From assembly GCA_035403225.1 (NCBI GenBank), contig DAONET010000002.1:62443-126442 (forward strand): 64,000 nt of DNA, given 5' to 3'. This DNA comes from Bacteroidales bacterium (GTDB lineage Bacteria > Bacteroidota > Bacteroidia > Bacteroidales > FEN-979). Positions within the stretch are counted from its first letter, which is position 1. Every line of letters starts with the position of its first letter. Shown piece by piece: positions 51,308 to 54,582 of the stretch. Position numbers and translations under genes: made by a program. The notes below the pieces were generated by a model. It worked only from the letters and a program-made list of their open reading frames with translations, searched no databases and had not been told where the DNA came from.

Positions 51308-51643
51308 ATGGCTTACGCAAAAACAGAATTGTTCGATAAGAAATTATCCTCCGATGCATCCTTATTCAAATCGCTGGCGCATCCCGCACGATTGGCAATA
51401 TTGAAATACCTTGCTGAAACCCGGGTTTGTATTACTGGCGATATTTCAGATAAATTGCCTTTGAGCCGGACAACCATTGTCCAGCACTTGAAAGAGTTGA
51501 AAAAAGTCGGGCTAATTCAGGGACAAGTTGATGGTGCAAAAGTGAATTATTGTCTTGATAATAAAAAAGTGTGTGAGGCTTATTCCGCTATACGGGAATT
51601 CTTCGATACCATCAATGTCCCAAACAACGGGAATTGTAAATAA
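51308..51643 (+). CDS. arsR: ArsR/SmtB-family transcriptional regulator (second copy)
   Basis: 111 aa with the HTH region LAHPARLAILKYLAETRVCITGDISDKLPLSRTTIVQHLKELKKVGLI. It starts 2 bp after the ABC ATPase gene. Confidence 0.9.
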   Translation: MAYAKTELFDKKLSSDASLFKSLAHPARLAILKYLAETRVCITGDISDKLPLSRTTIVQHLKELKKVGLIQGQVDGAKVNYCLDNKKVCEAYSAIREFFDTINVPNNGNCK

Positions 51644-51657
51644 TCTTTCTGACAACC

Positions 51658-52068
51658 ATGAAAATCCTGATCATTTGTACCGGAAATTCATGCCGAAGCC
51701 AGATGGCTGAAGGTTTTTTGAAATCCCTGAATCCTTCCATGCAGGTTTTTTCTGCAGGTACCCTCCCTGAAAAACAGGTCAGTCCTTATGCCGTAGAGGT
51801 CATGAAAGAAATCGGAATAGATATTTCCCGGAACAGGCCCAAAAAGGTGGATCTGTTTCTTGACGATTCTTTTGATTATGTGATCACCGTATGCGATTCG
51901 GCGAAAGAAACCTGCCCGTTGTTCATCGGGAAAGTGAAAAACAGACGTCACATGGGTTTTGAAGATCCGGCGGATGCCCGGGGGACAAAAGAAGAAATTC
52001 TTGCCGTCTATCGCCGTGTCAGAGATCAGATCAGAGAAGAATTCAGGGCTTTTTACGATACCTTGTAA
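51658..52068 (+). CDS. arsC: Arsenate reductase, LMW-PTP (thioredoxin-coupled) type
   Basis: 136 aa with the P-loop ICTGNSCRSQMAEG and the downstream Cys pair VCDSAKETCP. Confidence 0.9.
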   Translation: MKILIICTGNSCRSQMAEGFLKSLNPSMQVFSAGTLPEKQVSPYAVEVMKEIGIDISRNRPKKVDLFLDDSFDYVITVCDSAKETCPLFIGKVKNRRHMGFEDPADARGTKEEILAVYRRVRDQIREEFRAFYDTL

Positions 52069-52084
52069 ATAATCACTTCAGATA

Positions 52085-53206
52085 ATGGTAAAAATCAGTA
52101 AAAAACCGGCTTGTGATTGCGGATGCAACGGTGATGGAGCATCTCCATCCGAAAAAAAACATCCCGGATTACAACCTGATTTCATAATTGGCTCATATCC
52201 ATCTGGCGAAAAATCCGTTCCTCTGGTTTCAACAACATGGAGCCGGACCGATCGGCTGAGCGCGTTGAAAGTCCGGTGGTCCATCGGCAGAATGCATTAT
52301 AAAGTCGATCCGGGAATTTATGCAGTCGGGAAACCCGGCGATCAATCGCTTGTTTTTGTGACCGCCAATTATAAGTTGAGTTTTGATCACCTCAGAAGAG
52401 GGCTCGACGGACTCGACGCCTGGATCCTGGTCCTTGACACGAAAGGGATTAATGTTTGGTGCGCTGCCGGGAAAGGGACATTCGGCACCAAAGAACTGGT
52501 GCGCCGCATCCGGATCCATCACCTGGCCGACCTGGTCACTCACCGGAGAATCATCCTGCCGCAACTGAGCGCTACGGGAGTTGCCGCTCATGAAGTGAAA
52601 AAAATGACGGGTTTTTCGGTTACCTATGGCCCGGTGAGAGCCGTCGACATCAAGGCGTTCCTTGATTCCGGCCTGAAAGCCGGCGAAAGAATGAGAACCG
52701 TTACTTTTTCGTTGGCAGACCGCCTGAAACTGATCCCCGTCGATATCTTTTACGCAAAATATTACCTCCTCCTTATCCCGGCCCTGTTTTTCCTCCTTTC
52801 GGGTCTCAACCCCCATGGGTATTCCATCGAAATGGCCGTTGAAACCGGGAGCAGATCCATACTCAATTTATTTGCCGGTTACCTTTCCGGATGCGCTCTT
52901 ACCCCCATCCTCCTGCCCTGGATCCCGTTCAGAAGGTTTTCGCTGAAAGGATTACTGGTCGGCTGGTTAGTCGCACTCTTCCTGATGGGGGCAGGCACCT
53001 TGGGAAATAACGCGGTCGAGATCGGTTCCTGGTTCCTGATCATGGGAGGACTATCTTCTTTCATGGCCATGAATTTTACTGGTTCGTCTACCTTCACATC
53101 CCTATCCGGAGTTCAAAAAGAAATGAAAACGGCCATTCCTGTTCAGATTACGATGACGGCTCTGGGACTGGCAGGATGGATATTCACCAGATTTATTATC
53201 CTATGA
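52085..53206 (+). CDS. hgcA: Mercury-methylation corrinoid protein HgcA
   Basis: 373 aa. It has the cap-helix signature GINVWCAAGKGTFG (Cys126 codon 52460-52462), a CFeSP-like corrinoid-binding N-domain, a C-terminal multi-helix membrane domain and an N-terminal CDCGC cluster. Confidence 0.9.
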   Translation: MVKISKKPACDCGCNGDGASPSEKKHPGLQPDFIIGSYPSGEKSVPLVSTTWSRTDRLSALKVRWSIGRMHYKVDPGIYAVGKPGDQSLVFVTANYKLSFDHLRRGLDGLDAWILVLDTKGINVWCAAGKGTFGTKELVRRIRIHHLADLVTHRRIILPQLSATGVAAHEVKKMTGFSVTYGPVRAVDIKAFLDSGLKAGERMRTVTFSLADRLKLIPVDIFYAKYYLLLIPALFFLLSGLNPHGYSIEMAVETGSRSILNLFAGYLSGCALTPILLPWIPFRRFSLKGLLVGWLVALFLMGAGTLGNNAVEIGSWFLIMGGLSSFMAMNFTGSSTFTSLSGVQKEMKTAIPVQITMTALGLAGWIFTRFIIL

Positions 53207-53502
53207 AAGAATTCATTTATTTACCCGACGTAGTCACCCTGGAACTTGACAGGGAGAAATGCAACGGTTGCCGGATGTGCCTGACGGTATGTCCCCACGC
53301 TGTATTTGAAATAAAAGATAAGAAGGCGGTGATCCGTCATAAAGATCAATGTATGGAATGCGGGGCATGTGCCAAAAACTGCCCGCAGGAGGCCATTACC
53401 GTCAGATCCGGTGTAGGGTGTGCAGCCGGGATCCTCAATGGAATACTCCGCGGTACTGAACCGACATGCGATTGCAGTAAGGATAGCGGAAGTTGTTGTT
53501 GA
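53203..53502 (+). CDS. hgcB: Mercury-methylation ferredoxin HgcB
   Basis: 99 aa from an ATG overlapping the hgcA stop as ATGA. It has two CxxCxxCxxxCP motifs (CNGCRMCLTVCP and CMECGACAKNCP) and the C-terminal tail CDCSKDSGSCC. Confidence 0.9.
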   Translation: MKEFIYLPDVVTLELDREKCNGCRMCLTVCPHAVFEIKDKKAVIRHKDQCMECGACAKNCPQEAITVRSGVGCAAGILNGILRGTEPTCDCSKDSGSCC

Positions 53503-53523
53503 ATCTCAAATCTTCAGATCGAT

Positions 53524-54582
53524 ATGAAAACAAGACTTAAATTTCTGGATCGCTACCTCACCCTCTGGATCTTTCTGGCCATGGGCATCGGAGTGTTGTG
53601 GGGATACCTGTCTCCCGGTATCGCCGGATTCTGGAATTCCTTGTCATCAGGTACCACCAACATCCCCATCGCCATCGGCCTCATCGTGATGATGTACCCT
53701 CCCCTGGCCAAGGTAAAGTATGAAGAGCTGGGCGATGTCTTTAAAAATACACGGATTCTGGGGTTATCCCTGATACAGAACTGGCTCATCGGTCCGGTGC
53801 TGATGTTCCTTTTGGCCATCATCTTCCTGCAGTTCAATATCGATTACATGTACGGACTGATCCTCATCGGACTGGCCCGATGCATTGCCATGGTGATCGT
53901 GTGGAATGAACTGGCCAAAGGTGATACCGAATACTGTGCCGGACTGGTTGCGTTCAATTCCATCTTCCAGGTGCTGTTTTTCTCCCTCTACGCGTACCTT
54001 TTCATCGCTGTTTTCCCGGCATGGTTCGGACTCCCGACAAATCATGCAGTGGAAAGCATCACCATCGGCCAGATTGCCAAAAGTGTATTTATTTACCTCG
54101 GCATCCCGTTCATCGCCGGTTTCCTGACCCGATTCATTCTCATCCGGCTGAAAAACAAAGAGTGGTATCATACGAAGTTTATCCCGAAAATCAGCCCGCT
54201 GACACTCATTGCTCTTCTTTTCACCATCCTGGTAATGTTTTCCCTCAAGGGAGAATACATCGTCAGGATCCCTCTGGATGTAATCAGGATCGCCATCCCC
54301 CTGGGGATTTATTTCCTGATCATGTTCCTGGTCTCCTTCTGGATGAGCAGAAAGATAGGAGCCACCTATGAACAATCAACTACCCTGTCGTTCACGGCCG
54401 CCAGCAACAACTTCGAACTCGCTATCGCCGTAGCCATCGCCGTGTTCGGCATCGGTTCGGGAGAAGCCTTTGCCGCTGTCATCGGCCCCCTGGTAGAGGT
54501 GCCGGTGATGATCGGGTTGGTCAACGTGGCATTCCGGCTGAAAGACCGCTGGTTCAAAAACCCTGACGGAATTCAGTCGTAA
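53524..54582 (+). CDS. acr3: ACR3-family arsenite efflux carrier
   Basis: 352 aa with about 10 TM helices. The N-terminus [20 protein letters not shown] and the motif GLARCIAMV are typical of ACR3. Confidence 0.9.

Follow-up and report, generated by a model that had tools for sequence, protein, structure and literature searches.

hgcAB inside a predicted ArsR-controlled arsenic resistance operon at the end of a 21-gene array in a Bacteroidales genome

A 64-kb stretch of a Bacteroidales genome (the window, within which all positions below are numbered) contains the mercury-methylation gene pair hgcAB between an arsenate reductase gene, arsC, and an arsenite efflux gene, acr3. The best explanation of this locus, to which we assign a probability of roughly 0.7, is that a genuine HgcAB pair is encoded by genes six and seven of an eight-gene operon preceded by ArsR-type boxes, that this operon is the last of three units of a co-directional gene array, and that it is induced by arsenic, as the original prediction from this DNA had proposed. 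It has long been asked why microbes retain hgcAB, and the answer bears on the prediction of methylmercury production. Tests of the arsenic link are confined to Pseudodesulfovibrio mercurii ND132, whose hgcAB has no ars neighbours, and the outcome was ambiguous. The Bacteroidales operon provides a cleaner natural experiment, with hgcAB placed between arsC and acr3 behind a conserved candidate operator and with sister operons whose one difference is that they carry arsM instead, and the window operon offers concrete constructs and a candidate binding site. The arrangement suggests that hgcA transcription in fermentative Bacteroidales may track arsenic rather than mercury exposure.

The five plus-strand open reading frames (ORFs) of the proposed arsR-arsC-hgcA-hgcB-acr3 cluster were found at the positions claimed for them, separated by 14, 16, -4 and 21 nt, with an ATGA overlap between hgcA and hgcB at 53203-53206. 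The 373-aa product of hgcA (52085-53206, plus strand) scores 434.6 bits against the curated hidden Markov model NF040863 (cut-off 275), with residues 45-370 covering model positions 1-324 of 325 in an end-to-end match, and hgcB (53203-53502, plus strand) encodes a 99-aa 2x[4Fe-4S] ferredoxin that scores 128.9 bits against NF040864 (cut-off 99). The HgcA cap helix NVWCAAGK (residues 123-130) shows no variation in 26 aligned homologs, and its Cys126 is encoded by the TGC codon at 52460-52462. This motif fits the pattern N[VI]WC[AS][AGS]GK and is among the six motifs that serve as a high-stringency criterion for true HgcA, the cobalt-ligand cysteine being Cys93 in ND132 (PMC10087281). Five hydrophobic segments were recognised within residues ~216-373 by the Kyte-Doolittle scale, a hydropathy estimate and not a topology prediction, and HgcA is described as having a C-terminal membrane domain of five helices (PMC7305189). 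HgcB has cysteines at positions 20, 23, 26, 30, 50, 53, 56, 60 and 73, two CxxCxxCxxxCP motifs and a terminal CC pair at 98/99, and its cysteine numbers are the same in ND132 (PMC7305189). The assignment of the two ORFs as HgcA and HgcB was thus confirmed, with both curated models passed and the hallmark residues all present.

It is extremely improbable that the 373-aa protein is a non-methylating HgcA-like protein or a corrinoid iron-sulfur protein (CFeSP) paralog. A Pfam CdhD match and a likeness to the CFeSP large subunit point in that direction: residues 71-193 align with this subunit (E = 6e-11), which alone was matched in a PDB sequence search with HgcA that found no solved HgcA. In the Wood-Ljungdahl pathway, the large subunit AcsC/CdhE (PDB 2H9A, 4C1N, 4DJD) has a corrinoid-binding domain homologous to that of the window HgcA, but it has threonine at the cap-helix position of Cys126, no membrane domain and no ars context. 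The original prediction had made the placement of the cap-helix cysteine a point to be checked, and the alignment sets Cys126 opposite that threonine within an exact HgcA motif. The HgcA equivalog score also compares with 202 bits for the HgcAB-like fusion model NF043039 (cut-off 285) and 65 bits for the CdhE-type model, and hgcB is not fused, being an ORF of its own that adjoins hgcA and begins in overlap with its stop codon. Given the model scores, the cap helix, the membrane segments and the separate hgcB, a non-methylating paralog is effectively excluded by sequence, and on the same grounds the pair in the window is genuine, HgcA being a Cys-on corrinoid methyltransferase that has a membrane domain and HgcB its dicluster ferredoxin.

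The neighbours of the pair, predicted as an ArsR regulator, an arsenate reductase of the low-molecular-weight protein tyrosine phosphatase type and an ACR3 carrier, were confirmed by family models, Pfam and structural alignment. The arsR gene (51308-51643, plus strand) encodes a 111-aa ArsR/SmtB metalloregulator (NF033788, 63.4 bits, cut-off 55; Pfam HTH_5), arsC (51658-52068, plus strand) a 136-aa thioredoxin-coupled reductase (Pfam LMWPc, 80.3 bits), and acr3 (53524-54582, plus strand), the last gene of the array, a 352-aa arsenite efflux carrier (TIGR00832, 446.6 bits, cut-off 282.8). The best PDB match of ArsC is Bacillus subtilis ArsC 1JL3 (E = 3e-30); the CX5R loops align, and Cys7, Cys79 and Cys86 match the catalytic Cys10, Cys82 and Cys89 of 1JL3. 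In agreement with the earlier remark that no terminator hairpin could be seen, terminator-like sites are absent from every intergenic gap and all lie within coding sequence at chance frequency (14 vs 9.0 +/- 3.1 expected).

The operon probably begins further upstream than was first thought. The start at arsR (51308) given in the original prediction is not borne out: arsR begins 2 nt after the gene for an ABC transporter ATPase, and the likeliest start is at 48650, with the gene trxL. No inverted repeats were found in the 200 nt before arsR, and for this reason the search for an operator was moved further upstream, where tandem palindromic boxes, ACGTATTATTACGTCA (48589-48604) and ACGTATATTTGCGTCA (48617-48632), constitute a candidate ArsR operator/promoter on the plus strand. 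The Bacteroidetes -7 promoter element is TAnnTTTG, and the second box contains one, TATATTTG (48620-48627). Across the array this element matches the plus strand at 42075 (in the gap before a second arsR gene, arsR'), at 47152 (intragenic) and at 48620 (in the 41-nt gap before trxL), and it has no plus-strand match within 48650-54582. The box pattern is found in the window only at 48587-48632, which includes a reverse-strand reading of the first box, and at an unrelated one-mismatch site at 1801, the chance expectation for the window with one mismatch being 0.66.

Two other promoter searches were set aside. A sigma-70 scan gave 15 sites vs 14.2 expected and was uninformative, this being the wrong promoter type for Bacteroidota, and the strict pattern TTTG-N17-23-TAnnTTTG had one match in the window, far from the locus and at chance level, so that the -7 element alone was used instead.

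Between the boxes and arsR lie trxL (48650-49393, plus strand), which encodes a 247-aa secreted thioredoxin-fold-like protein (Pfam Thioredoxin_6, 30.2 bits), and the permease (49405-50625) and ATPase (50628-51305) genes of a MacB/FtsX-type ABC exporter on the same strand (Pfam FtsX, MacB_PCD, ABC_tran). The gaps from trxL to acr3 are 11, 2, 2, 14, 16, -4 and 21 nt, and with the gaps of 16 and -4 nt hgcAB has no room for a promoter or terminator of its own. The operon is therefore probably trxL-ftsX-abc-arsR-arsC-hgcA-hgcB-acr3 (48650-54582), as far as its layout can tell, and the transcription unit containing hgcAB most likely starts at ~48640.

The same boxes recur in other genomes (L-labels denote fetched comparison loci). 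They stand in tandem directly upstream of arsR in four species (L012, L019, L022, L025), whereas they precede trxL in L017 and in most of 34 metagenome loci. One or more boxes mark 37 of the 42 operon heads in the 1.08 Mb of fetched loci, where 83 box sites lie at heads vs 8 elsewhere. Two of these eight, at L005 1067-1110, stand in tandem immediately before hgcA in the closest species representative, which has 72% HgcA identity and in which hgcAB is followed by arsE-arsF-arsG-rhodanese. Such conservation and positioning is what an autoregulated ArsR operator would be expected to show.

In the scheme that we infer, ArsR would sit on the tandem palindromes at 48589-48632, over the -7 element, and block transcription when no inducer is present. 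As(III), either imported or produced from As(V) by ArsC, would bind the conserved ArsR cysteines and release the repressor, whereupon the eight genes would be transcribed as one unit; ArsC would then reduce arsenate and Acr3 export arsenite while HgcAB is co-produced. Any part of HgcAB in arsenic handling belongs to the same inferred scheme; once made, the pair could pass a corrinoid methyl group to a thiol-bound soft metal, Hg(II) being the sole substrate shown, in other organisms. Arsenic-responsive expression of hgcAB is plausible in view of the conserved boxes upstream of arsR and trxL and of an ArsR precedent in ND132, where hgcAB is arsenic-induced through an ArsR-like regulator and Hg is not an inducer (Gionfriddo 2023; 10.1101/2022.10.17.512643).

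The original prediction had proposed a survey of hgcAB neighbourhoods in other Bacteroidota, and this survey showed ars-flanked hgcAB to be the usual arrangement. One genome per species was scanned, and the best 80 of >584 hgcA relatives, namely 29 Bacteroidota species representatives and 51 loci of other phyla, were annotated with the window's own proteins. Among the Bacteroidota, acr3 follows hgcB in 17/29 and arsC precedes hgcA in 19/29; five species (L022, L023, L025, L028, L039) have precisely the five-gene order. Only 5 of the 51 non-Bacteroidota loci have an adjacent acr3. The arsEFG, DGC and trxL/FtsX/ABC modules, the first two of which lie further upstream in the window, recur beside hgcAB in shuffled order, including in a metagenome-assembled genome (MAG) of Planctomycetaceae (L064) and in an unclassified MAG (L034). 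The nearest relative, L119 (91% HgcA identity), is syntenic with the window and has the same NrfH-like, Fer4, Rrf2 and SpoU flanking genes.

These neighbourhoods bear on a second explanation, by which they arose only incidentally, through horizontal transfer into a hot spot of metal resistance, and hgcAB is expressed separately and functionally unrelated to ars. The shuffling of modules among species, the 4.6-kb block by which the closest relative differs, the patchy hgcAB phylogeny shaped by horizontal gene transfer (10.1101/2022.10.17.512643) and the lack of ars neighbours at most non-Bacteroidota loci all fit such a history. We nevertheless consider it quite improbable for this operon: gaps of 16 and -4 nt are too small to hold a separate promoter or terminator, at least 17 species retain hgcAB between arsC and acr3, an ArsR-type box pair stands directly upstream of hgcA in L005, and there is an experimental precedent for ArsR control. 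Moreover, the GC profile stays within 0.42-0.51 across the array, with no island-like break and no discontinuity at the hgcAB cassette.

What stands at the arsC-acr3 junction was compared among loci chosen through trxL (by a three-sequence TrxL alignment and a metagenome scan) and not through hgcA, of which 14 reach the junction. Nine have hgcAB and no arsM there, four have an arsC::arsM fusion followed directly by acr3 and no hgcAB, one has plain arsC-acr3, and hgcAB and arsM occur together in none (Fisher's exact p = 0.005, with no correction for relatedness). By NF008823 (329-338 bits, cut-off 263), the fusion was verified as an arsenite methyltransferase. On a neighbour-joining tree of the FtsX permease, computed with no support values, the two states are interleaved, which implies several switches between them. 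Since the same backbone also occurs without hgcAB (L102, L104, L105, L109, L112), hgcAB behaves as a swappable cassette at this junction. From these gene arrangements we take hgcAB to be mobile, a cassette within a widespread Bacteroidales ars operon whose arsC-acr3 junction it occupies; sister operons have an arsM domain in that position. In a wider set of loci, three species (L007, L010, L012) hold an arsC::arsM fusion and hgcAB within one operon. A putative ArsM of L064 proved to be a generic class I methyltransferase (48.5 bits, cut-off 263) and was removed from the arsM counts.

The claim that hgcAB fills the slot of an ars structural gene accordingly stands in part. It agrees with the presence of either hgcAB or arsC::arsM at the junction (9 vs 4) and with their interleaving on the permease tree; it does not agree with the three species that hold both, nor with ND132, which made no methylarsenicals. 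The same evidence has to be weighed for a stronger version of the claim, in which HgcAB is an arsenic or metalloid methyltransferase, a corrinoid-dependent stand-in for S-adenosylmethionine-dependent ArsM, and mercury methylation is a side reaction. In its favour are the mutual exclusion at the trxL-chosen junctions, the switching on the permease tree, the induction of ND132 hgcAB by arsenic and not Hg, the lower As(V) sensitivity of the ND132 wild type as compared with the hgcAB knockout (10.1101/2022.10.17.512643), and a Cys-rich HgcA N-terminal tail and an HgcB CC tail that suit soft metal(loid)s. However, the fusion that shares an operon with hgcAB in L007, L010 and L012 is itself an ArsM by NF008823 (338 bits), and in ND132 neither mono- nor dimethylarsenicals were produced, nor did arsenic resistance fall significantly without hgcAB (10.1101/2022.10.17.512643). 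The sample is also small and phylogenetically non-independent, and no fetched locus has hgcAB while lacking acr3 or arsC, by which the effect of hgcAB could be isolated. On balance we regard this explanation as unlikely.

A related and rather unlikely proposition is that hgcAB and arsM are interchangeable cassettes at the arsC-acr3 junction in one Bacteroidales ArsR-box operon and that HgcAB natively alkylates, by means of its corrinoid, or handles arsenic or a similar soft metalloid. Were this so, HgcAB would be served by a thiol-rich trafficking set (trxL/FtsX/ABC, a small Cys-rich protein, a CcdA-like protein, arsEFG and DGC), and mercury methylation would be an accident of that chemistry.

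Several observations weigh against the preferred reading, that of genuine hgcAB in an arsenic-induced, ArsR-boxed operon. The boxes are tentatively assigned to this ArsR by position alone. Its Cys41, Cys82 and Cys110, although broadly conserved in an ortholog alignment, differ from the vicinal or C-terminal As(III)-site patterns of known ArsRs, with weak matches to PDB ArsR structures (E ~1e-4); because they match no characterised As(III) site type tested, the effector could be something other than As(III), such as another soft metal(loid), an organoarsenical or S-adenosylhomocysteine. An exact-motif search for a degenerate -7 element leaves internal promoters possible, and L017 has TAACTTTG in the gap between abc and arsR. 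ArsC scores 128.5 bits against TIGR02691, the pI258-type equivalog, under its cut-off of 174.3. The nearest relative, L119, is without the 4.6-kb block from trx164 to arsR, hence without arsR and the box, so that its arsC-hgcAB stands directly behind the DGC module; the regulatory wiring is thus labile even among close strains. The permease tree is a neighbour-joining tree without support values, and the loci are few and phylogenetically non-independent. Finally, loss of hgcAB in ND132 brought no significant overall drop in arsenic resistance (10.1101/2022.10.17.512643).

Comparison with known systems places the window among published arrangements. As in the window, arsR2-hgcA-hgcB of ND132 has an ArsR/SmtB regulator gene upstream of hgcAB on the same strand; expression in ND132 is derepressed by both As(III) and As(V). 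In ND132, however, no other ars gene adjoins hgcAB, whereas the window pair is enclosed by arsC and acr3, with ABC exporter genes preceding arsR; ArsR2 has a four-Cys motif, whereas the window ArsR has three broadly conserved cysteines at other positions; and the ArsE (PF13192) and DGC (PF08859) genes co-induced in ND132 are located elsewhere in the genome, whereas their homologs in the window are part of the same array. Bacteroidetes genomes, including Paludibacter jiangxiensis, have been named as having ArsR-family regulators together with hgcAB (Gionfriddo; 10.1101/2022.10.17.512643). McDaniel 2020 (PMC7438021, Fig. 6) described MAGs in which acr3 and arsC flank hgcAB, arsR and in some cases arsM being nearby, and hgcAB-ars co-localisation appears again in Peterson 2025 (PMC11984097, Fig. 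4c) and in PMC10349881. The McDaniel and Peterson loci represent the same phenomenon, presented as selected neighbourhoods and with the same hypothesis of metal(loid) resistance tied to methylation.

The novelty that the original prediction had attached to hgcAB-ars co-localisation and to the arsenic hypothesis was consequently overrated, both being found in McDaniel 2020 (PMC7438021), Gionfriddo 2023 and Peterson 2025 (PMC11984097). Because the arrangement and ArsR control have already been published, the window locus is a fresh example and not a discovery. In a limited check of the literature, no mention was found of the candidate operator, of how far upstream the operon reaches, of the three-unit array with arsEFG, of how often the arrangement occurs in Bacteroidota or of sister operons that lack hgcAB; all of this adds modestly to what is known and does not make a new class.

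Canonical resistance operons have the order arsR-arsC-acr3 or arsR-arsC-arsM-acr3. The hgcAB-free ars operons share with the window an ArsR repressor, a thioredoxin-type ArsC, an Acr3 pump, tight packing and the same upstream boxes; relative to the canonical form, the window adds hgcAB between arsC and acr3 and is without an arsM domain. The SAO locus of Clostridioides difficile has in common with the window an ABC transporter, thioredoxin-like proteins and CC-type motifs, with an ArsP-type exporter in relatives (10.1101/2022.07.06.499078). Membership of the window in the SAO system was rejected (SaoA 136.6 bits, cut-off 360; SaoT 19.5, cut-off 65), as was the identity of the ArsP-like permeases of relatives with SaoE (135, cut-off 325).

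The window HgcA has a Cys-rich N-terminal extension at residues 1-~30 (52085-52175), KKPACDCGCNGDG...SEKK, with cysteines at C10, C12 and C14. Codons 2-50 of hgcA contain no ATG, GTG or TTG, so the extension is obligatory, and almost all Bacteroidota representatives are without any such extension. Twelve of the 29 Bacteroidota species have two extra genes directly before hgcA (for example L007 4936-5947, L009 5033-5994 and L017 4929-5929). The first encodes a ~97-aa single-pass protein with N-terminal DCGCxDGCCPPKK and C-terminal CCPKK, the second a 233-aa CcdA/DsbD-like membrane protein, and neither passes the cut-off of any curated family model; upstream of hgcA, CcdA-like matches are present in loci of Chloroflexota (L049) and Planctomycetota (L081) as well. 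The window has neither gene, and its extension, CDCGC...SEKK, resembles the N-terminus of the small Cys-rich protein. Another homolog, P0042, has a CGC...CCPPKK extension and is likewise without the two genes. The probable origin of the extension is a fusion between hgcA and the 5' end of the small gene, once that gene and the CcdA-like gene had been lost.

Cys- or selenocysteine-rich N-terminal extensions of HgcA were reported by Haft & Gwadz (10.1101/2022.07.06.499078). Deltaproteobacterial hgcA frames run upstream through one in-frame TGA in a C-U motif such as PCUGP or GCUPK (L031, L036, L042, L043, L056, L057, L060, L061, L070, L071, L074, L079, L080, L082), which reproduces their selenoprotein extension. 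The window extension differs in its CxCxC motif, which has no selenocysteine, from the CU motif of the deltaproteobacterial loci.

The operon closes a metalloid and thiol-redox array of 21 co-directional genes at 42110-54582, in which the largest gap is at most 82 nt and which consists of three operator-marked units, the hgcAB operon being the last. The candidate promoter/operator of the first unit combines a -7-like element, TACTTTTG (42075-42082, plus strand), with the palindrome TTCGTCTTTCTACGAA (42084-42099, plus strand), which ends 10 nt before the start codon of arsR'. This palindrome is the sole exact TTCGTN6ACGAA in the 64-kb window, and 11 of 100 shuffled sequences gave one match. Boxes of this pattern stand just upstream of arsR'-type genes in L001, L020, L021, L023, L097, L102, L104, L105, L110 and L119. 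The arsR' gene (42110-42442, plus strand) encodes a 110-aa ArsR/SmtB-family protein (Pfam HTH_5, HTH_20; NF033788 50.8 bits, cut-off 55) with vicinal Cys41-Cys42 in helix alpha-3. It is followed on the plus strand by genes for an ArsE-like thioredoxin-like protein (42455-42691; TIGR00412, 123.8, cut-off 62), an ArsF family protein (42701-43132; NF040494, 105.8, cut-off 60) and an ArsG family permease (43152-43853; NF040495, 306.6, cut-off 200). The adjoining, co-directional arsE-arsF-arsG genes form a module of organoarsenical type that heads the array together with arsR'. The list of ars genes given in the original prediction was thus incomplete, since the window also has a second arsR and arsE/F/G. 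The unit continues with a rhodanese-domain protein gene (43850-44269, plus strand; Pfam PF00581), whose start overlaps the end of arsG by 4 nt.

The second unit is marked by another box of the arsR' type, TTCGGATTTCTACGAA (44285-44300, plus strand), which has one mismatch to the pattern, is identical to the 42084 box at 14/16 positions and lies upstream of the DGC module; exact boxes have the same position in L097 and L102. The module (44352-46716, plus strand; Pfam PF08859, PF01597) encodes a 124-aa protein, a 97-aa 2x[4Fe-4S] ferredoxin weakly similar to HgcB, a DGC+GcvH fusion and two more proteins that have DGC domains. It is found beside hgcAB again in L011, L012, L013, L064 (the Planctomycetaceae MAG), L110, L114 and L119, and arsenic co-induces a DGC-domain gene and hgcAB in ND132 (10.1101/2022.10.17.512643).

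Further along the plus strand are genes for a membrane-anchored thioredoxin (46752-47246; Pfam Thioredoxin), a 119-aa lipoprotein-like protein (47256-47615; no family match in Pfam or the curated models) and a putative outer-membrane protein of 329 aa whose signal peptide is immediately followed by CC (47619-48608; no family match found). TrxL has a Cys-rich C-terminal tail, SSCCPGGSKTGVCK, that is conserved in homologs across phyla. These thiol-rich envelope proteins, TrxL and the putative outer-membrane protein, suggest soft-metal(loid) trafficking.

The locus occurs in identical form in the NCBI MAG GCA_035354165.1, in two JGI metagenomes and in one ENA assembly; L001 is the NCBI MAG copy of it, and L002 is an identical contig from which the exporter gene starts were taken. 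At L001 7621-8541 the FtsX permease gene is broken into two short ORFs, in a region that is 300 bp longer both in the window and in the JGI contig, which is either an assembly difference or a real disruption.

The genes surrounding the array include those for NrfA (cytochrome c552 nitrite reductase), a 284-aa Fe-S protein and an Rrf2-family regulator just upstream of it (37538-41042, minus strand), neighbours that are also present in L119. A convergent resistance-nodulation-division (RND) efflux operon (54573-60494, minus strand), with genes for a TetR regulator, an outer-membrane factor, a periplasmic adaptor, an RND pump and a PG0541-family protein, shares 10 nt with the 3' end of acr3 through its PG0541-family gene, so that neither strand has space for a terminator. 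Scans for Rfam families and tRNAs over the full window gave no matches, and thus no cobalamin riboswitch.

The original prediction had set the Bacteroidota host against the classical sulfate or iron reducers and methanogens, but such a host is not unusual for hgcAB. The closest HgcA proteins are one at 91% identity and then Bacteroidales MAG proteins at 64-73%, many of which already carry the name HgcA at NCBI; as the closest named proteins among the thousands of relatives returned are from Bacteroidales, an hgcA-positive Bacteroidales genome is not unusual. The description of the host as a starch-degrading member of Bacteroidota is supported by a Sus-like starch utilisation locus at 336-17799, which comprises one glycoside hydrolase family 77 (GH77) gene, four GH13-family genes, a major facilitator superfamily transporter and SusC/SusD/SusE-F-like genes.

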